A stretch of 64,000 nucleotides of DNA from Paramecium tetraurelia (lineage: Eukaryota). Each line of letters opens with the position of its first letter. Positions within the stretch are counted from its first letter, which is position 1. The stretch covers positions 310,001 through 374,000 of the forward strand of contig CT868196.1 in NCBI GenBank assembly GCA_000165425.1. Reading direction: 5' to 3'. Both the position numbers and the translations under genes were made by a program. This document shows, piece after piece, positions 1 to 9,599 of this stretch. Below the pieces are notes generated by a model. It did no database searches, had not been told where the DNA came from, and saw only the letters and a program-made list of their open reading frames with translations.

Positions 1-1119
1 TTTTCATATTATTAAGTAATTTTGTAATTGAATTCAGGATTTTCAAAATAAAAAGTAATAGTATTAATTGAGTAGTCAATATAAATAAAATGCCAAGTAT
101 TAATGTATGAGTAATTATCTATTAGAATCTCTTTAGTAATTAAGACTAAAGAATTATCTGGGATCGAACGAACAAGAATTGGAATAATTTATGAATAAAA
201 ACAGATTCTAAATATCCATTTATGTGATTCTTTATCGTAAACATAATCTAAAATAAAAGAATTAGATCCAGTTGCCATAAAGTCTTATGTAAATCTATTT
301 GCAACGACTCTTAATATATGTATAATCTAATCGAAATTGCTATCATATAATGCTTATGCTTTGGCCCAAAAGGAGACTCTATAATCCTTTTGAGTTTGGG
401 TCGAGATTGAATAAAATGAATTAGATACTCTTTCTTAAAATTCAGTGCTTTGCTCCTGTAATAAGACTGCATTGCTACCCTATAAGGAAGGGTAACCACT
501 CCAAAGATATTTCAATTCTGACATTTATATTATTGCTGCATTCATTTTCCCTGGAAATTATTTTAACAGGATTTTAGTACCAGTCATCGGGTTGATATCC
601 TAACTAAGTAAAATTGCTTACTGAATATATCCCTCCAGAGATTTATGTTACAACAAAATTAGGTTTGATGGTATTTGGAAAGGTAAAAGATTTTCTGTTA
701 GTGTTTCCCCAAAATTATTCAACCATAACCTAGCCTGAATCTTAGTAATAGATAATAGTGCTAATCCTGATGCCCTCAATTTCCAAAGGTTGAAATTGGA
801 AAGTACACTCTACCCACTTCCCTTCTGTATTGACCTGCACATGAAATACAACTAGCCTTTATTCAAATAGAATTTCCATATAAATGATATAATTCAACTC
901 CTATTTGTCTCCGAAGTACCCACCCTACAAAAAGTAGTAATAGTCTTCATTCGATTATTCATAAAGATATTTGTTAATTCCCAGAGGGCAATATAATGAG
1001 AGAACTCCTGAGGCTTAGTTAGTTGAGGTCCATTTAAAAATATATGGTTATCTTGTTTGATCTTGGACTACTCGAATATCACCGAAGGCCATTCTTAATA
1101 GGGAAAAGATTAATATCAT
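1..1119 (-). CDS. Secreted/surface protein, N-terminal part (runs off window start); resembles the N-terminus of large Paramecium surface proteins
   Basis: ATG at 1119 then signal-peptide-like MILIFSLLRMAFG; open in code 6 with one short intron (~600-621); beta-rich segments LKQFPG, VSFWAK, WHFIYIDY. Confidence 0.65.
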
Positions 1120-1143
1120 AATATATATTTTTATTATTATATT

Positions 1144-4100
1144 TCAATAATAAAATCTGCATTTTATCCTTTTCTAAAATGTTATATCTAACTCTACATA
1201 TTCTTCAAAGTCTTAAATTTCAAAAAGTAAATAGATTGGTGTTTGTAATAAGTTTTATTCCTCTTCCTTACTATTGAACATAATTGGAGAATAGAGCAAC
1301 TTAGCTTTCTATTTGATGCAAGTGACTTTCTCACCAAACACTTGTTCAGCGTAATTTATAAACCTTTCCAAATTATTGACCTGAGAACTAAAGTTTACAT
1401 CCCACCTGGACCAGAATGAGAAATTTTTTCCATTTATTTATTCATATTGACATTCTCCAGGTTCTGATTGAAGTGCATATGGAATAGCTAAATTTAAGAA
1501 CATATTCTTAAACGTCTCTAATTTTAGGTTCTCATCAATCATCAACTTTTTGATTACTTTCACCAATTCGATAGTTTATAAACCTGCTATGCAAGCACTT
1601 GTTGTAGCCATTGCAGGAACAATCTAAAATATAATATAAATTATTTACTCTTCCTGCCTTCAACTTCGTGGTCAGCCAATCCAAAGGTTCTAATCCATAA
1701 TTTTAAGCTCTGCAATTCAAGGCAGCTTATATAAATTCAACATGATGGTTGTCATCTTCATCCTTCTCAAATTGTATAGGCTATGGTAAAAAGTCTAAAG
1801 GCTTTAGTAATTTAGGAGTTGATTCAGTCACTTCGTAATAGTCCTTAAAATATTCCACTATTTAATTGATTAATTCCTATTGACTTTACTACTAAGTGTC
1901 CTGATTACCTTCTTCTTGAGCCTTGGCTTATGCATCCTTTTATACTTAATCTTGTATCTACTATAACTTTTCTTTGTTTTCTTTGTATTCTTTAGGTTTG
2001 ATATTCTTGAGCGTTTGTTCGAAATCAAATTGTTAAGGAATTTCAATGCCCAAAGCTGCAGCATATAAGTAAGAGACAGATTGAATAAATTTGATTTACA
2101 TTTCTTCTCCTTTAAATTCAAATATCTATGGAGGTCTTTTGGGAGATGACCAGAACAATTTTCCATTAACAATATGATCCAATGGATATGCTTTCAAGAG
2201 GTCCATGATTCCATAGACAAAGTACTTATAGAATTTATTAAGAGCATATTAAATGCAATCCTCAAACTTTTTAGGCATATTCTTACAGAATTTAAGAGTA
2301 GTCTCTAATCCTTCAATGGTGAAATCCTTGAATAAAAAGGTTTGTCTAATTTATTATAGTTTAGTAGTGAATAGTTTTTCAAATTTATCTCTTGCCCATT
2401 CTAAACAGTGATTACTATCTTCAGGAAACATTTTGAGAGTGCAATAAGGTATTTCATTATTTTCTTCTGGATCCTGTTTACTACCATAACTTTCAGTTAG
2501 TTTGGGTAATATGACTTGGACATGTCCCTTTGGTCCCAAAGTTCCACTCTCAAGTAGGGGTTTCATATGTTCAATGCATTGTGAATCAACGTATAATCTT
2601 GCTTACACATTGTCAAGTGCATTGGTTATCACATCCACATATTAAAATACATTAGTATATAAACGCTCGGTTTATGGAGAGATTTTATCGAGTCTAGCAA
2701 CAATCTTCATTTAAGGATTCATCTTCAGACATGCTCTGGCAGCAGTATATGATTTTGGTTGTCTAAGATGCTTTTCTCTAAATAGAAACTATCTACTAAG
2801 ATTAGATTTCTCTATCACATCAGGATCAGTGACAATGATATTCCCATTAATACCTAATCCTATCATTGCATAATTCTTAAGCAATTCGCATCCTATTGCA
2901 CCAGCTCCAATCAAAAGTAATTTGCACTTTTCGATTGCCTATTATAATTCCTTTCCCAATATTAGATTACCATCTAACAATTCTTCGCATGTATGGAAAT
3001 AGCATTATCTTATTGGCATATACTTATGAGTAATTGCTTTGATGATTTCTTAACATACTATTCCACCTAAGTAAGCAGCCTATGGAGGGAATATTTGATT
3101 GCCAGTCTTTTAGAACAATTCATTGATTTCTCCACTTTAATTAGAAAATCGATTCATTTGCTCATTAATTACTGTGTACTTCTATTCATCCAAAATAAAG
3201 TTTGGATCAAATATGGGATCAGTCATAATTGCACTCATCTGTTTATTTTAAAGAACAATCTTTTATTTAATTGTCTATCCTCTTCCATTTCTCAAATACT
3301 TACCAAACTAACTCAAATCTCCCACATTAATGGTTGATTTATTGATTACTTTTACAACAGTTAATTATTAATTATTGAGTGATTTGCCATCCTCTTATAT
3401 GATTTCTTTGAGTTCAATGACATCATTTGGACTCAAATTGTGCTTCCCTTTAATCTCTATAATACCTTGATCTTAATCAATATTTTCAATAATGAATTCC
3501 TAAACTTATTCTCCATCTGCATCATTCACTGTAAATTGATCTCCCAAATCAATCATAATCCTTCCATAAACAGAGACCAACTATGATACAATCATACCAA
3601 TTTTGTATTCTCTACAGATTGCTGATATTGTATTGACAATTTCAAGTGAATCCACTTCGCACAAACATACCACTTAATAATTCAAACTCTTAATAGAAGA
3701 TATTATATCAGTAGAATAGTCAATCTAAACATAAGGATTTAACCCTTATAAATGTAGTAAACTCTGTTCTAATCTGCTTGACTCTTCATTTTATACAAAA
3801 AATTATCCTAAATTATTGAGTTTCTTGTCTTCTACTATGGTCAGTCTTTTCAGACCTGATAACACAAGATTCTTGGCTGTTTCAATACCTAATGCTCCCA
3901 ATCCATAAATGATTACACTCGCTTATGATTATTTACTTACAGAATCTAGACCCATGACACCTATATATCTGGACATCAAATTTTGAACTTCTGCATTTTA
4001 AATATCAAATTATCTGTTGCTAACATTACTCTCACTTACATCTATCTCTGGTAATTGACTTTATAAAAATTCGCTTATTTCTTCCTTCTTCCTATAATGT

Positions 4101-6721
4101 TATTTCTTTTTCTCCTATTGTATCTGAGTATATGATTGTCTTTGAATTATCGATAATATCTTTTTATCTGATTAATGAGTTATGCAAACTTTCAATTTCT
4201 CAAGTTCTTTTTTTAATGCTTCAAATTCTGCTGTTAAAATGCTCTTGAATTTCTATGGCTATTATTAGAATGGAGCAGAGATATTATGATTCTAAGTACA
4301 ATGATAACTGACTGGCAAATCAGCTTCATCTATCCATTATTATACTTCTTTAATGATAACATCTTTTCTCAAATAAAAACTCTTTTAAATAACCTCTTCA
4401 AAACCTGCTGGTGGTTTCTACAATTATTCTATCATTGCATATCTAATGTTAGCCAATTTAACAATATTGCAATAACCTCTGTTATTCTTCTCACCATCTA
4501 CTGTTCCCATACTGCTTTCCCAACCTGGCTCATTGAAATATACATATTCAGACATAACCATTGCTTGAATGGAAACCAAGATCTGCCACAACGTTGACTC
4601 ATTTGCTTTCCAATTATCTCCCCAAGTACCTAATAAACTTAGACATACCTTTCCACAATTATAAAGATTGGGATTGAATCTAACCTTTCCATGTCCAGTT
4701 GTTTCTAATAAACATTTAGGAGGCCTGGAAGGATAATCATCACAAAATAAAAAATTGTATAAAAAGGCTCCATGAGCATACGGGGTTCCACTTGAACCAA
4801 ATATCATAGCTTGCATAGCATCCATTCTGTCTTTATCGTATCTTAAGAATATGGAATTTGTCAATTAAAGTGGCAAGTTCTCACCAATATCTGACAACTC
4901 CTTTATGATTCTATTCATCTTCTTATTTGGAGGGGATGAAGACAAATGAGAATAAGCCTCTTCCAATTGCTTTTTCCATCCTGGTTGTTTGATTACTTCA
5001 CTTGTTTTCAGCACTAAGGGCTTCATTATCATAGGATAGAGATAAGCAGGATCCTATATTTACTAAGATTCAGTCTCTTCGAATTTTACATCAATATATT
5101 TGTTCTTTTCTAAAACAATAACTAATTGATTGAAGAACTCTTGAAGGTCCTTCAAAACTTCACTTAATTGTGTATCTTGATTTGAAATACCCTTAATTAT
5201 TTTCTAATTCAATTCTGGATCCTCTTTGCTTTGAATAAATGCTGACTCATTATTAACTTTTTGTATAACTTCAAACAATGAGACATCCCCATAATCTTTA
5301 CAAGTGAAGAGATGCATGGTTTCTTCAGTTAAAAACTTTTTTAATAATTCAAAGACTATCTGAATGACTTCAAATTTCTCTGTTATTGTTTGACTCTTGC
5401 TTAAGGATGATAATATACTCTTGATAACTGGTATGAGACATGAATCTTCTACCATAAGAATGTAATCTAGATTTAGGTTTCTTAATTTCTTAAAAATTTC
5501 AGTCAATATCTTCCATCTATACCCTTCAGCTTATTAATAAATCAAATCAGAATCCAAAATCTGGACTTCTTTCTTTTTCTATTAAGTTTGATAGGTTGAG
5601 GAATAATTGATATCTCCATAACCAATACCCTTAGGTTTAGACCCCTTCTGTTTATTATTCGAACTTGCTTATGGAGCTGCTTTAACTGGTTCTTCAACTT
5701 TCTTTGGTGGCTACTTTTCCACTTTCTTTTATTTCAAATCTAATGAATTAGCTTCATAGTATTGATGCAATCTCAATAGCAACTAATCAGTTTATTATTC
5801 AGTGTAATTATTAAGGTTCACTTGCAATAGATTCTCATAAACCACTTAATGGAATATCGATGTGTCCTTAGGGTCTTCTAGACTCAAGCTAATCACATTA
5901 GTGAGCCAATCCTAACTTATAATTCTTTAACACCAATCTTAACTCTCAAATAACAAACACTCGTACAATAACATATTGACAGTTGACTTATTATCAAATT
6001 TCTCCTAAGCTAATTATATCAATAGGGAGTGAATCAATCCTTTTTTTGATAATTTCTTGCATAATTTGGTTTTTGTGTTGTCAATATTAGTGCTTTTTTA
6101 AAATACGTAGATTTTTTCAAGTTTGCTAAATTATTGTCCCATTATTCGAATTCCCTTCTATTCAAAATAGACTGTTTGATTATGATATAATTGATTATTA
6201 TAATACACTAGATCAGCCTAACACTTGAGATCAGTTTTATTGAATGTCTTCTACATTCCTAATATGACGTTCGTATAAATTAAAATGCATGGCTTTTCCA
6301 ATCCATATTGCATCTGATCTCCTTTGTCAATCCATGCATACTTGTTATTTACTTGATGAGGAAACTCCTATAGGAATGCTTCAGGTATATCAGGTGGTGC
6401 AACATAAGAGCTTTTACTTAATAATTATAAAGGTAAATCATTGAGAGGAGTATCAAGAATGTCATCATAGACTTGAATAAGTAGTTGTTCATCACAATTT
6501 TCAATGAGGGAGTTAGCCAATTCTTTGATGCAGTTATTCTTCAAGTAATCATTTTTCAAAGATTTGATGTATTGATACAGAGCCTTCTATTAGTAGATCT
6601 TCTCAAAGCTTGTCAACAGTTTGAATTCCTATAGTGTTGTAAACTCAATATTATTGCAGACTTCTTCGAGGGTTTGCTCCTTAAAGATATAAACATCTTT
6701 TCCATAATCTTCATAAAACAT
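1144..6721 (-). CDS. E2-E1 fusion protein: N-terminal region + BIRC6-type UBC domain + complete UBA6/UBA1-like ubiquitin-activating enzyme (~1850 aa)
   Basis: One code-6 frame from ATG 6721 to TGA 1144 with one 25-nt intron (1624-1648). [39 protein letters not shown] (E2 Cys ~4644), [57 protein letters not shown] (E1 Cys ~2442), [12 protein letters not shown]-terminal UFD-like region. Confidence 0.93.
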
Positions 6722-6770
6722 TTAGATAATTAATTGTGTTTTTGCGATTATTATTTGTATTAATTAATTT
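6722..6770. promoter_or_regulatory. Putative 49-bp bidirectional promoter between E2-E1 fusion and DEAD-box helicase
   Basis: Divergent ATGs at 6721(-) and 6771(+). Confidence 0.5.
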
Positions 6771-8280
6771 ATGGATCAAAACCCTGAATAAGATAGAGAT
6801 TGGGATGATTTAAAAGGTGTATTAGCTGAAGACATCATTAATAAATTCAAAGAAGTAGGTCCAAAGGTTTATTCTCACCAATATGAATTCATAAATTACT
6901 GTCTAGGACAGAATGTCAATTAACAATCTCCTGTGATTGCTCTAAGAAGTCAAACAGGCAGTGGAAAGACTCTGTGCTTCCAATCTCTCATTTATTAGGA
7001 ATTCAAGGAAAAAAATCAAAAAATTAGTGAACAGAAATAAATCAAGTAGAAAGACAATACAATGAAGGAAGTTAGAATGTTATACCCATACACAATAGTT
7101 TTGGGATAGACTATATACTTAAAATAACATGAGGAGTATTTCAGAAAGCATTTACCAGAGAGATTGAAAAATGAAAATTTAAAATTTTAAACTTTCTTTG
7201 CATTTACAAAAGACAATGTATTATATTTCATTATTAATGTAGTAATTTCAATAAGTAAAAGAGAATAGAATTGAAGACGCTGATTGCTAGGTGTATCTAT
7301 GTCATCCTAGCAAAATGTTAGTGGGATTGAAAAACCGTATAATAAATGTGTCAAATCTTCGATATTTGATAATTGATGAGGCTGATCAATTATTGGAGAA
7401 GAATGAATAAAATTAAGCTAGAGTTGAGACCATGCAATTGATCTAATTCATTCTTGGATAAACCAATAATCAAAGTTATTAAATTGTTTTTGTGAGTGCT
7501 AGTTTGAAACCTGAAGAAATTTAAAATCTCATTAAGGAATGTGTTCAAAATAATATTGATGCAAGCAAGAAAGTTGATTCTAGATTCTTGCACAAAGATG
7601 AGGATGATATCTAAGAAGTTGTTTGTAACTTAAAAGTTATCCCATCAATTCAATAACAGATTTCTCCTTATACAATTGTTCATATGTATAAAGAGGCTCA
7701 AGAATAACCTGAATAGATCTTAGTAGATTTATTAAAGGATGTTTTTGATAAATTTACAGAGGCTTAGGTTATGATATTCTTTAACAAAAAAACCATTGTT
7801 AATGAATTGATAAATTTGTTTAAAAAGTCTTAGAAATTGGAATACATAGTTAAAAATAATTGGATTGGAGAATGCACTGGAGACACCAATTAAGTAGATA
7901 GAGAAATAGTGAGGAAAGAATTTAAGGATGGAAAAAAGAAGATCTTACTCTGTACAGATGTTTTATAAAGAGGAATGGATTTTAGAAAAGTGAGAGTCAT
8001 TATTCATTATGGATTACCAATTACACCAGCAGGAGAATTTAAAGAAGAGAGGTAATCTTATATCATTTAAGTATCTAGCTATTATCAACGTTCTGGAAGA
8101 ACAGGAAGAGCAAAGGATGAAGGAGTGGTTGTCTCTTTGTTATTGGAAGAAGATCTTAAATAGAAAAGACAAGAGAAATTAGTGGAAAGTTTAGTGATGA
8201 ACAATTCAAAAATACAAAAATACGATTAGAAACAATTCTGCACTGATTTGGCTAAATTATTGAATTTCAATAAAGAGTGA
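6771..8280 (+). CDS. Divergent DEAD-box RNA helicase (Dbp5/eIF4A-like core)
   Basis: SQTGSGKT (motif I), LIIDEAD (II), VSAS (III), TDVLQRGMD (V), YYQRSGRTGR (VI); short introns near 7219-7242 and 8052-8078. Confidence 0.85.
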
Positions 8281-8309
8281 TAAAACAAATAAAATATTAA
8301 ACAATTAAA

Positions 8310-9599
8310 ATGTCAAACTAATCTCGTAGCAGCCAATCTTCAAGAAGTTCTTCCCAAAAGCGTAATACAAAAAGACCTTAGAGAGACAAAAGAAAGAAGA
8401 ATAACTCTGATGAATATGACAGTGATGATGAAGATGTATCCCAATATGAGGGTATTTTAATTCAATTCATTTTAGGCACAAGACTCAAAAATAAACAGCA
8501 ACCACTATTAGGTCCTGGTAGATTCAACAAAAGAGAAAATAAACTCAAAAAACCAAATTCTGTCTACACTCCGGCGGCAACTACATTTCTATACAAGCCT
8601 GGCACAGAATTACCTAATCTATCCAATTTCATCAACTAGACTATTGAAATTAGAATTGCCTGCGAGTATGTCAACAAAAACAATCAAGCTTTGATTCTTC
8701 GATAAATTTGGGGATCCAATGGTGTCTATGCTAGTCATAGTGATGCAGTCTGTATTGGCATACATGCAGGTCTCTTAGCCTTGGGAGATCTTAAACTAAC
8801 AGGAACCTTTTATTAAGGAATTAGTTTGTCTTGTAAAGTTATTAAAGGCAAAAAGACATTAAATGGTTAATTAAAAGTGCCTTTACTTTCAAGATCTCTC
8901 AAGACTCCTTGTGCTCATTGTCTAAAACCTGAGAAAGTGAATTGGTTGCCTCAATTGGGATCTCCTGAATAATTGATAAGTTGGGCAAGAAAGATGTCTT
9001 TGCCTCCTCATAGGAGATTAACCAAAAAAACCCATTTGAATGTATTCTTACATGAACCTCCCTAAAACAGTCTTCCAGAAAATCTATTAGTTAATAACTT
9101 ACCTCCACTAAATGAAGGTTGGATAGTTTGGGACATGTGTAATGAACCTAGTTAAAAATACAATCTACTAACATTTTTGGACAGACAAACTGCCTAAGGT
9201 ATTCCTAGTCGAACATCGTATAGACTAAAAACTAATTGTCTATATATTGAAACAAGTAACAAAAAGTATATAATCAAATATAATTGTAAGATTTGAGATC
9301 TCAATGGATCCAAATAAAATAGCTGAAGAAGTGTTTTTAGACTCTCAAGTCTTTATGATCTCTGAAATCATCATACCATAATAGTCGGATATTGAGATGT
9401 TATAAAAATATGGAGTAAATCAATTGATCTAATTAGTTAGGTTCCCTTACCAAAAGAATTTAAAAATCTAATTTTAGACAAATTGAAATGGATTAATTTT
9501 GAATGGGGTAATGATAATGTTATTATTGATGGACAATTCACAATTCAATGTTTGAAGAGCTTCAAGTTTGTGCCAATTACAAAACATTAACATTTATGA
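8310..9599 (+). CDS. RXT3/HDC1-like histone deacetylase complex protein
   Basis: IEIRIACEY..RQIWGSNGVYASHSDAVCIGIHAG (Rxt3 LWGTDIYTDDSD-like); DMCNEPSQKY..TSYRLKTNCLYIET and LKWINFEW resemble the plant HDC1 C-terminus; short introns. Confidence 0.78.

Follow-up and report, generated by a model that had tools for sequence, protein, structure and literature searches.

A single-chain fusion of a BIRC6-type ubiquitin-conjugating enzyme and a complete E1 in Paramecium tetraurelia is a member of a ciliate family

The window, a 64,000-nucleotide stretch of a Paramecium tetraurelia contig (CT868196.1, positions 310,001 to 374,000), holds one expressed gene that encodes an E2-E1 fusion in a single chain of 1850 amino acids. 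Its UBC (E2) half is of the BIRC6 type, and its E1 half has the domains of a complete UBA1/UBA6-type enzyme. The original prediction of a single gene for an E2 and a full E1 is therefore confirmed: one TGA-free frame carries the Pfam domains of both. Judging from the sequences, it is almost certain that the fusion gene and its family exist and that the enzymes are catalytically competent. E1 and E2 enzymes usually occur as distinct proteins, and the choice of an E2 by an E1 is under active structural study. In animals, UBA6 and BIRC6 form a selective partnership; papers from 2025-26 reportedly treat the UBA6-BIRC6 and UBA1-UBE2O pairs. To our knowledge, the E2-E1 fusions studied so far are bacterial only (Cap2). 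Our literature search found no paper on a ciliate E2-E1 fusion, and the available parts of a 2025 review of E1 enzymes mention fusions in bacteria only (PMC12355090).

The coding sequence lies on the minus strand (6721..1649 joined to 1623..1147, window positions) and, with its stop codon, coincides exactly with 1144..6721. The coding sequence begins with an ATG (6721..6719), and a TGA lies in the same frame 18 codons before it. Under the ciliate code (table 6), a single frame runs without a stop from 6775 to 1535 (1746 codons), in which 99 TAA or TAG codons are read as glutamine. None of the 1850 in-frame codons of the spliced model is TGA, whereas the two alternative frames on this strand contain 50 (among 1859 codons) and 91 (among 1858), which excludes an open frame by chance. 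Between the UBC (~4322..5038) and the E1 (from ~3970) there is neither a TGA nor a change of frame, and all the Pfam matches (UQ_con, E1_FCCH, two stretches of ThiF, and UBA_E1_SCCH) fall in this one frame. The features of the gene are collected in the table.

Table. Features of the fusion gene in the window
Feature	Position	Strand	Remarks
Exon 1	1649..6721	-	1691 codons, ciliate code; covered by stranded RNA reads up to 6677
N-terminal region, ~280 residues	5879..6721	-	Without recognised family
BIRC6-like pre-UBC module	5111..5878	-	Contains KPKGIGYG and a further motif of 12 residues
Extended UBC (E2), BIRC6 type	4322..5038	-	Pfam UQ_con core at 4553..4912
E2 catalytic Cys codon, TGT (GKVCLS)	4643..4645	-	Cys in 102/104 fused proteins
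UBC-E1 linker, ~115 aa	3971..4321	-	Moderately conserved flanks, variable middle of ~40 aa
E1 IAD with SRY arginine finger, FCCH (3269..3448) and four-helix region	2960..3970	-	
E1 AAD	2432..2959	-	Pfam ThiF; motifs (31 residues) invariant in 104/104
E1 catalytic Cys codon, TGC (IPYCTLK)	2441..2443	-	Cys in 104/104 fused proteins
E1 SCCH	1664..2425	-	Pfam UBA_E1_SCCH E 5.9e-56, full length (1-254/254)
Intron, 25 nt, GTAAAT...TTTTAG	1624..1648	-	From the sequence; absent from the original prediction
Exon 2, UFD of E1	1144..1623	-	159 codons and stop TGA (1146..1144)

Removal of the short intron is needed to reach the UFD. It joins ...KAGR to IVPAMATT... and gives a stop-free model, which aligns without gaps to a P. 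octaurelia protein of the same length (P0002, 1850 aa) with 96.7% identity. No splice joint at this intron is listed by the 58-nt RNA reads. In all three runs of oligo-dT stranded RNA (948, 1111 and 1047 reads), every bin from 1114 to 6677 is covered, and the depth is almost wholly in the minus-strand orientation (the opposite strand has a depth of 0.54 in two X21 bins and none in the others). RNA-seq across the UBC-E1 junction had been proposed as a check of the fusion; coverage there is continuous, with a depth of 4-13 over the linker and no drop, the 58-nt reads attesting to continuity of coverage and not to single molecules that span the E2 and the E1. A divergent gene starts at ~6783.

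The UBC domain is recognised by Pfam (UQ_con, E 3.8e-19). Its best solved relative is the UBC of human BIRC6 (189 bits over 239 residues), UBE2O and UBE2Z being clearly further (112 and 96 bits). Foldseek gives the same order (E 2e-19, 1e-12 and 6e-10, respectively); its top seven matches are all UBC domains of BIRC6 or dBIRC6, with TM-scores of 0.75-0.78 on the target. The assignment of this domain to the BIRC6 type, already made in the original prediction, is thus borne out by both sequence and fold. The prediction had also ascribed the upstream KGIGYG..SCLIP block to BIRC6, and this too holds: when 59 long fused forms are compared to 44 animal BIRC6 sequences with hhalign, the block is homologous to the stretch that directly precedes the animal BIRC6 UBC (probability 99.1%, E 1.7e-18, 227 columns), while reversed and shuffled controls give E values of 0.28 and 0.93. 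The match is weak (15%, E 0.0017) when only 11 Paramecium and Tetrahymena rows are used.

The resemblance to BIRC6 (BRUCE, Apollon) includes the extended UBC, whose N- and C-terminal helices are shared, the homologous block of ~250 residues with its WAKGTGFG- and SCLxP-type motifs, and the giant size of some fused relatives (3589-4737 aa). However, the BIR domain (PF00653) and the Pfam BIRC6 domain (PF12356) are absent from the 1746-aa frame at E<=0.01, and also from the precomputed Pfam lists of the fused relatives. The UBC of BIRC6 is near the C-terminus, whereas in the ciliate fusion a whole E1 follows it. The window protein was considered as a BIRC6 orthologue, and this was rejected because the BIR domain is missing. 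In a quick UBC tree (LG+G4, 132 rows), the fused UBCs lie within one set (support 92) inside a clade of support 99*. Animal BIRC6 forms another clade, which takes in Thecamonas and Planoprotostelium, apart from the fused one on an unresolved backbone. No Pfam family matches the first 557 residues of the window protein at E<=0.01. UBE2O, an E3-independent E2/E3 hybrid, shares the extended UBC class and a large N-terminal substrate-binding region, but has no E1 part.

The E1 half is, by its domain content, a complete E1 of the UBA1/UBA6 type, with IAD, FCCH, AAD, SCCH and UFD and all the catalytic motifs. Pfam detects ThiF in two stretches (E 3e-62), the alignment to UBA6 spans both halves, and E1_FCCH scores 30.5 bits for a cut-off of 29.5. 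The UFD is weak in Pfam (E 2.8e-4, 21.9 bits, below the 25-bit cut-off), but hhalign of 102 fused against 95 canonical E1 C-terminal tails gives a probability of 100% (E 4.4e-56, 145 columns). The motifs of the ATP/Mg site (GxGxxG, the arginine finger, RQFLFR and the Mg-binding aspartate) are present in the window and invariant in the 104 fused proteins, as are the N-P-N of FNPN, the G-G-G-C-E positions of GxGxxGCE, TDPD and the Ser-Arg finger. Both catalytic cysteines, which had been described as intact, are indeed encoded (table).

The original prediction treated the fusion as a single curiosity. It belongs instead to a ciliate-wide family: the order UBC, linker, E1 is found in 104 proteins that pass a joint UBC and E1 coverage filter, from Paramecium, Tetrahymena, Pseudocohnilembus, Platyophrya and many metagenomes. 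Most members are metagenome proteins, and those with a named source are all from ciliates. UQ_con and ThiF are both carried by 90 of the 120 listed proteins, and BLAST places the UBC before the E1 in all of P0002-P0090. Sizes range from ~1340 to more than 4700 aa, the further fused giants mentioned above being 17 in number. The region N-terminal to the fused enzymes varies from nil to more than 3000 aa and in some relatives has ZZ, UBA or RanBP2 zinc-finger domains. One cluster member from T. thermophila is listed at 7545 aa, the presence of UBC and E1 in it being unchecked. At least four paralogous lines of the fusion exist in Paramecium. P. octaurelia also has one model with the UBC only (P0091, 1146 aa) and one with the E1 only (P0125, 999 aa); they are placed on a contig of equal length, and in the trees both pair with the same fused protein (P0023). 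One paralogue may thus have been split, either in nature or by the annotation. A single origin of the fusion, early in ciliate history, is most likely, since the E1 parts and the UBC parts fall into one clade each and the groupings inside the two clades correspond.

The apparent fusion could in principle be two adjacent genes, an E2 and an E1, read as one where TGA is the only stop and the spacer is TGA-free by luck. A TGA-free spacer of 115 codons is not very rare in AT-rich DNA (~3-6 TGA are expected from the 50-91 per ~1860 codons of the other frames), and the GC content of the linker (0.283) is the lowest among the parts of the gene; the intergenic DNA on either side is nevertheless lower still (0.215 and 0.255). 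The steady RNA depth over the linker and its confined length (72-131 aa in the 104 proteins, median 93, with conserved flanks) also argue against two genes. Among 80 metagenome loci, 52 extend from the UBC beyond the E1 cysteine, the other 28 being cut by the contig start. All 52 informative loci have the order UBC, linker, E1, in one frame for 51 of them and as a single alignment for 46, and in 26 of the 52 in-frame stops are absent altogether. The same arrangement is carried by a 6239-nt contig (L061) that has CCCCAAT/ATTGGGG repeats at each end and only one ORF, of 1999 aa in the standard code; in another locus (L022), a 4003-aa ORF adjoins a G4T4 end. Telomere-capped, gene-sized chromosomes carry the fusion gene alone, and the reading as two neighbouring genes, to which we give hardly any credence, is already close to refuted.

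The affinity of the E1 half is less clear-cut. The original prediction favoured UBA6 rather than UBA1. The best solved match is human UBA6 (433 bits; yeast Uba1 scores 404 and human UBA1 393), at an identity of 33-35% to UBA6 and UBA1 alike. In E1 trees, which are unrooted and contain no unfused ciliate UBA1, the fused E1s (22 rows) form one clade (100/100) and the holozoan UBA6 (12 rows) another (100/100). The fused E1s are outside the UBA1 clade and on the same side of an internal split as UBA6 (86/84 with LG+G4; SH-aLRT 89 with LG+C20), and in these unrooted trees they are not nested in the UBA6 clade. A firm grouping with UBA1, named beforehand as a result that would contradict the prediction, is not seen. 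The preference for UBA6 therefore stands for the best match, the position outside UBA1 and the side of a moderately supported split; it does not extend to membership of UBA6, as the fused E1s have a clade of their own. At 14 columns that separate UBA1 from animal UBA6, the fused consensus agrees with UBA6 in six, with UBA1 in five and with neither in three.

There is a sizeable minority chance that the E1 half is a ciliate-specific duplicate of the ordinary ciliate UBA1 whose evolution was fast once it had been fused, so that its adjacency to UBA6 is artefactual and says nothing on an ancient UBA6-BIRC6 pairing. The sampling of the trees and the near-even split of the diagnostic columns are in line with such an origin; all five partial E1s, including one from Platyophrya (P0149), fell within the fused clade, the stem of this clade is long (0.50-0.68), and a quick free tree places it with UBA1 (support 67). 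However, the careful LG+G4 and LG+C20 trees set the fused and holozoan UBA6 sequences against UBA1 and amoebozoan E1s, and a tree that holds the fused clade and UBA6 together has a likelihood above that of the quick free tree (+21.7 lnL, p-AU 0.744). Moreover, if long-branch attraction were at work, the expected neighbour of the fused clade would be UBA1, whose stem is longer (0.35-0.56), and not UBA6 (0.15-0.18).

The original prediction had put forward transfer in cis, possibly an insulated pathway and perhaps independence from an E3. In the mechanism proposed here, the tethered UBC would dock on the retained UFD/SCCH cleft like a free E2, and its own cysteine would be loaded, either inside a single chain or from one subunit of an oligomer to another. 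Target choice would then fall to the variable N-terminal region, as it does in BIRC6 and UBE2O, which are E2/E3 hybrids. Charging of the tethered UBC by its own E1 is slightly favoured, and a competent fusion with a self-charged UBC, taken as one blended reading, is probable. Canonical E1s of the UBA1/UBA6 type are pseudo-dimeric within a single chain and need no partner, which argues against transfer in trans, and the linker, with its variable core, appears long enough for the UBC to reach the UFD/SCCH cleft of its own chain. We are more doubtful of transfer in trans, in which an oligomer would have each UBC charged by the E1 of a partner, or of an E1 half that mainly charges free E2s beside a UBC half acting as an ordinary BIRC6-like E2/E3. 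With the UFD, the usual dock of free E2s, still in place, such E2s could be additional or even the main clients of the E1 half; the linker, whose flanks are conserved, may be structured and not a free tether. Partner charging has a precedent in Cap2, where the available parts of the description place each N-terminal E2 beside the E1 active site of its dimer mate (bioRxiv 10.1101/2022.03.31.486616). It seems improbable that the fusion activates a dedicated ubiquitin-like modifier in place of ubiquitin, in a private conjugation pathway. The separation of the fused E1s from UBA1 and the several Paramecium paralogues are compatible with it, and UBA6 has a second substrate, FAT10, according to the available parts of two papers (PMC13065764, PMC13572539); but the adenylation-site motifs common to UBA1 and UBA6 are invariant in all 104 proteins, and no result of the analysis suggests a different modifier.

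Cap2 of type II CBASS has the same order of an N-terminal E2, a linker and a C-terminal E1 in one chain, and the available parts of its description present it as a self-contained conjugation enzyme that conjugates cGAS (bioRxiv 10.1101/2022.03.31.486616). Bacterial E2+E1(+JAB) proteins of families 6a/6b have this order too, as far as the accessible text of Iyer, Burroughs and Aravind 2006 goes (PMC1779556). In the bioRxiv description, Cap2 has a single homodimerising ThiF/ATG7-like adenylation domain and a crossover-loop cysteine; its E2 is ATG3/ATG10-like and its linker domain is structured and ATG7-like, whereas the ciliate fusion has a canonical UBC and a pseudo-dimeric IAD+AAD E1 with SCCH and UFD. 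Given these different architectures, the ciliate and bacterial fusions are independent, and their likeness is an analogy and not common descent. Compared to UBA6 and UBA1, the ciliate E1 differs by the E2 at its N-terminus.

A bolder reading, which we regard as a long shot, is that ciliates carry an ancient autonomous ubiquitylation machine: a single chain would combine E1, E2 and a targeting region that resembles an E3, load its UBC intramolecularly and dispense with free E1 and E2 enzymes. The E1 half would then represent a third ancient lineage of eukaryotic E1s, with UBA6 as sister, and the E2 half would be of the BIRC6 class. If so, the UBA6-BIRC6 partnership would be no animal invention but the split form of a pairing older than the divergence of ciliates and animals. 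By the gene-fusion argument, the family suggests a functional link of a BIRC6-class E2 with a non-UBA1 E1 lineage outside animals. A conserved eukaryotic fusion of such an E2 with a full canonical E1 provides a natural tethered pair, useful for trapping the transthiolation state, for asking if transfer runs in cis, and for asking if cells can operate a ubiquitin pathway that is kept apart from the general E1. The short standard-code members from metagenome contigs (~1340-1460 aa) are practical for expression.

The minus strand of the window encodes one expressed polypeptide that combines an E1 with a UBC of the BIRC6 class, both complete and conserved. A single frame is open from 6775 to 1535 on this strand (1746 codons, including 99 in-frame TAA or TAG in the ciliate nuclear code, table 6). 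After ...TTKLKAGR it reads into GTAAATAATTTATATTATATTTTAG, a 25-nt intron, downstream of which the next frame continues as IVPAMATT... through to the terminal TGA. The spliced model, of 1850 aa, is stop-free; it aligns gap-free with P0002, the P. octaurelia relative of the same length (96.7% identity), and with one gap with P0003 from P. pentaurelia (1851 aa, 92.8% identity). The limits of the original prediction, 1144 and 6721, are therefore exactly those of the coding sequence. The 1850 in-frame codons contain no TGA, whereas the two alternative frames of this strand contain 50 and 91, which excludes that the frame is open by chance. This one frame matches the Pfam families UQ_con (E 3.8e-19), E1_FCCH (30.5 bits), ThiF in two stretches (E 3e-62) and UBA_E1_SCCH at full length (E 5.9e-56); a Pfam search of the first 557 residues gave no family match. 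Both catalytic cysteines are intact, as had been predicted.

Features of the fused gene and of its neighbours (window coordinates)
Feature	Position	Strand	Remark
First ATG	6721..6719	-	in-frame TGA 18 codons before
E2 catalytic Cys codon TGT (GKVCLS)	4645..4643	-	from sequence
E1 catalytic Cys codon TGC (IPYCTLK)	2443..2441	-	from sequence
Intron, 25 nt, Paramecium-type	1648..1624	-	from sequence
Stop TGA	1146..1144	-	end of spliced frame, after the intron
DEAD-box helicase (DEAD + Helicase_C)	~6783..8280	+	Pfam; upstream, divergent from the fused gene
Rxt3-like ORF	8247..9296	+	weak Rxt3 match; after the helicase

Three RNA runs with the same species label (X21-X23; oligo-dT, paired, stranded) were placed on 900..7300, with 948, 1111 and 1047 reads, and every bin from 1114 to 6677 is covered in all three. 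The first mate lies on the plus strand for essentially all of the depth (the opposite orientation reaches 0.54 in two X21 bins and is 0 elsewhere), as a minus-strand RNA would give in most stranded libraries. As oligo-dT priming predicts, the depth is highest towards the 3' end (about 10-27) and gradually tapers to about 2-7 towards the 5' end. Across the linker (3896..4323) it is 4-13 with no gap; the reads are 58 nt long, and therefore show continuity and not single molecules. No splice joint at the 25-nt intron is listed in these reads. Run X1 gives a 7479-nt contig in which the intron is kept; this contig is therefore DNA or unspliced, and uninformative on transcription. At position 1598 the window has C on the plus strand, hence an AGT (Ser) codon in ...AMATTSA..., and the reads have G (11/11, 11/11 and 15/15 in the three RNA runs), as does a DNA-like contig. 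The resulting ACT (Thr) restores ATTTA, a motif present throughout the family where the UFD region starts; the discrepancy probably reflects strain variation or an erroneous base in the window.

From about 6783 upward the read strand switches, at the start of the divergently transcribed helicase gene, where frame changes suggest small introns. Reads within that gene show mixed letters at 7055, 7073, 7169 and 7173, suggesting alleles or a close paralogue. Downstream of the fused gene, the minus strand has ORFs without a family, and RNA is almost absent at 900..1113. Nothing in the flanking ORFs, searched with Pfam, points to a functional link with the fused gene.

The protein belongs to a large family. 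A search of 7895 candidates with the UBC-linker-E1 junction region retrieved 154 proteins at E<=1e-3; among the 120 matches listed, at least 90 have both UQ_con and ThiF in their precomputed Pfam lists, and BLAST against both halves gives the order UBC then E1 in all of P0002-P0090. Fused proteins occur in Paramecium octaurelia, pentaurelia, sonneborni and tetraurelia, with several paralogues each (1850, ~2390, ~2014-2460 and ~2600 aa), and in Tetrahymena utriculariae, T. malaccensis, Pseudocohnilembus persalinus and a Platyophrya transcriptome. Extending the search to longer proteins (397 candidates, 107 matches) brought in a further 17 fused proteins, of 3589-4737 aa. Among these giants, Paramecium proteins of 4620-4650 aa carry UBA and RanBP2-type zinc-finger domains, and some others carry ZZ fingers. 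P0481 from Tetrahymena thermophila, named 'ubiquitin-activating enzyme E1', is in the 90% cluster of the fused P0248 (3915 aa); at 7545 aa it would, if its model is right, be among the largest E1-containing proteins. The shortest members (~1340-1460 aa) begin directly with the UBC, which shows that what the family conserves is the E2-E1 core, to which N-terminal parts were added or from which they were lost.

The order of the parts is fixed, the length of the linker is constrained and the UFD is retained. Indeed, in the 104 proteins that pass a joint filter (UBC >150 aa, E1 coverage >600 aa), 1 to 3383 residues precede the UBC (median 563), and the UBC and E1 BLAST matches lie 72-131 residues apart (median 93). 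Conservation varies along the linker, with ~2 bits per column in the ~40 residues at either end and ~1.1-1.3 bits, at 63-71% occupancy, in the ~40 between them. The E2 cysteine is present in 102 of these proteins; the E1 cysteine, the N-P-N of FNPN, the G-G-G-C-E positions of GxGxxGCE, TDPD, the Mg-binding Asp and the Ser-Arg finger are each present in all 104. A profile-profile comparison of 102 fused with 95 canonical C-terminal tails (probability 100%, E 4.4e-56, 145 columns) identifies the tail as a true UFD.

Metagenome contigs scanned with the family alignment gave 80 loci. In 52 of them the P0002 match spans from the UBC (query residue <=640) to beyond the E1 cysteine, in one frame in 51 and as a single alignment in 46; the other 28 are short contigs in which the match begins <=400 nt from the contig start, and which are therefore uninformative on the fusion. 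Ciliate-type telomere repeats (G4T4 or CCCCAAT/ATTGGGG), whose types we take to be tied to particular ciliate classes, cap ends of 16 of the 80 loci. L061, a 6239-nt contig capped at both ends, has a 1999-aa standard-code ORF as its sole ORF >=150 aa, and the 4003-aa ORF of L022 ends beside a G4T4 end. Gene-sized chromosomes of this kind rule out that the E2 and E1 halves are separate genes.

The UBC is of the BIRC6 type, in line with the original prediction. Against solved structures, its sequence scores 189 bits with human BIRC6 (E 8e-55; 239 aligned residues, including the extensions), 186 with fly BRUCE, 112 with UBE2O and 96 with UBE2Z. An AlphaFold model of the pre-UBC block and UBC (536 aa) has a mean pLDDT of 69.5 and a pTM of 0.52, the UBC part being mostly at 80-95, the pre-UBC block mostly at 60-85 and residues 41-117 below 50. 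Foldseek ranks the E2 classes in the same way: BIRC6/dBIRC6 UBC (E 2e-19 to 3e-17, TM 0.75-0.78 on target), UBE2O (E ~1e-12), UBE2Z (E 6e-10) and ordinary E2s (E ~1e-6).

Among the Foldseek matches listed only the UBC part is matched, so profile comparison is the sole basis for the homology of the pre-UBC block to BIRC6. In 59 long fused forms, the 330 residues that precede the UBC match the corresponding stretch of 44 animal BIRC6 with a probability of 99.1% (E 1.7e-18, 227 columns), compared to E 0.28 with a reversed and E 0.93 with a column-shuffled template, which bears out the BIRC6/BRUCE type given for this block in the original prediction. KPKGIGYG is aligned opposite YWAKGTGFGTGS, and a second motif opposite BIRC6 SCLLPA..SYLRNDS. 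The match is weak with only 11 Paramecium/Tetrahymena rows (probability 15%, E 0.0017), and a plain phmmer search does not detect the similarity. The same block occurs in giant ZZ-SPRY-UBC proteins (99.9% to BIRC6), two of which, outside the aligned rows, trace to the amoebozoan Echinamoeba. These proteins, P0251-P0274, are giant unfused E2s with ZZ, SPRY and F5/8-type-C domains, and P0261 has a BIR domain too. BIRC6-like proteins thus seem, from these sequences, to be much older than animals, against the metazoan framing of the literature consulted.

Could the halves be plain orthologues of known enzymes? For the E2 half, the answer is no: neither a BIR nor a Pfam BIRC6 domain is found by Pfam in the single open frame, the class to which the UBC belongs is very large, with 1477 representatives at E<=1e-30, and in a quick LG+G4 UBC tree of 132 rows the 13 animal BIRC6 form a separate clade with Thecamonas and Planoprotostelium (support 93). 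The fused protein is therefore not a BIRC6 orthologue. In that tree, whose backbone is without resolution, 34 fused UBCs fall in one 43-row set (support 92) within a clade at 99 that also has giant unfused E2s, one from the choanoflagellate Salpingoeca helianthica. P0341 (1098 aa, three tandem UBC stretches), the top match of the UBC search, adjoins the fused clade.

The E1 half had been predicted to be of the UBA6 rather than the UBA1 type, and this holds in part. Among solved structures the best match is human UBA6 (433 bits), followed by yeast Uba1 (404), human UBA1 (393), fly UBA1 (382), S. pombe Uba1 (368) and UBA7 (328); named UBA6 and UBA1 database proteins are nearly equal, at 413-437 bits. 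Trees were built on the region from the IAD to the end of the AAD, excised per protein by BLAST. FastTree (207 rows) and quick LG+G4 (87 rows) split fused-type from canonical E1s at 100, and all five partial E1s, including a Platyophrya fragment, sit inside the fused clade. A careful LG+G4 analysis of 61 of the 87 rows (leaving out 5 partial, 13 fused and 8 UBA1) gives clades at 100/100 each for fused (22), UBA1 (16) and holozoan UBA6 (12, including the choanoflagellate Savillea). These trees clearly set the E1 half apart from ordinary UBA1; nor is it a UBA6 orthologue. An internal split of the unrooted tree (86/84) puts UBA6 and fused against UBA1 and 11 E1s, five of them identified as amoebozoan (Cavostelium, Phalansterium, Mastigella, Pelomyxa, Tieghemostelium); the UBA6 + fused split recurs in a quick LG+C20 PMSF tree of 44 of those 61 rows (SH-aLRT 89). 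The quick free tree places fused with UBA1 (support 67), and a fused + UBA6 constraint has a likelihood 21.7 units above it (p-AU 0.744). In 14 diagnostic columns, where UBA1 and animal UBA6 differ at >=80% consensus and fused reach >=70%, fused agree with UBA6 in 6, UBA1 in 5 and neither in 3. The E1 half may share an origin with UBA6; a late, ciliate-specific origin is a rather doubtful possibility, which arises because the E1 tree is unrooted and without ordinary ciliate UBA1.

The E1 and UBC trees show matching groups (the window protein with the ~2390 and ~2460 Paramecium lines, then Tetrahymena; Platyophrya P0018 with P0012 and P0021), which argues for one fusion event followed by diversification. 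Two P. octaurelia proteins, P0091 (UBC-only, 1146 aa) and P0125 (E1-only, 999 aa, beginning right at the E1), each have 279,845 nt as longest contig. P0023, a fused P. tetraurelia protein, is the partner of the former in the UBC tree and of the latter in the E1 tree. They are either a fused paralogue split by annotation or truly split in P. octaurelia.

The fusion is of good interest to the ubiquitin field, and we infer the following mechanism. The E1 half would activate ubiquitin or a UBL, the tethered UBC would dock on the UFD/SCCH cleft as a free E2 does and get charged, in cis or between chains, and the N-terminal region might steer the charged UBC to targets, by likeness to BIRC6 and UBE2O. 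The fused gene models are already public under automatic names, and the fusion may be listed in the domain-architecture surveys of Burroughs et al. (2008 and 2009).

In the literature searched, including the available sections of PMC12999496, PMC12355090, PMC4327156, PMC11354881 and PMC1779556, we found no description of a eukaryotic UBC-E1 fusion. Bacterial E2+E1 fusions were predicted in 2006 (PMC1779556), and CBASS Cap2 is a working one, whose two identical subunits are arranged so that the E2 of one faces the E1 of the other (bioRxiv 10.1101/2022.03.31.486616). Cap2 has E2, linker and E1 in the same order as the ciliate protein, but its parts are ATG7/ATG3-like whereas those of the ciliate protein are canonical. 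The ciliate fusion is an invention independent of Cap2, from canonical parts. In the sections available, a 2025 review of E1 enzymes mentions fusions for Cap2 only (PMC12355090), and the 2025 NSMB paper on UBA6-BIRC6 (PMC12999496), which used a UbDha-type trap, describes BIRC6 as conserved throughout the metazoans, reports the loss of UBA6 from nematodes and arthropods and states that in the fly it is UBA1 that charges BIRC6, with no mention of protists.

The metagenome loci also bear on the genetic codes of their hosts. Among the 52 loci that span both halves, 26 have no in-frame stop (GC 0.19-0.42), 25 have only TAA/TAG and one has a single TGA. Four homologues of the fused gene (L010, L023, L055, which ends in G4T4 repeats, and L065) have 5-18 in-frame TAG and no in-frame TAA, which hints that their hosts read TAG, perhaps not TAA, as sense.
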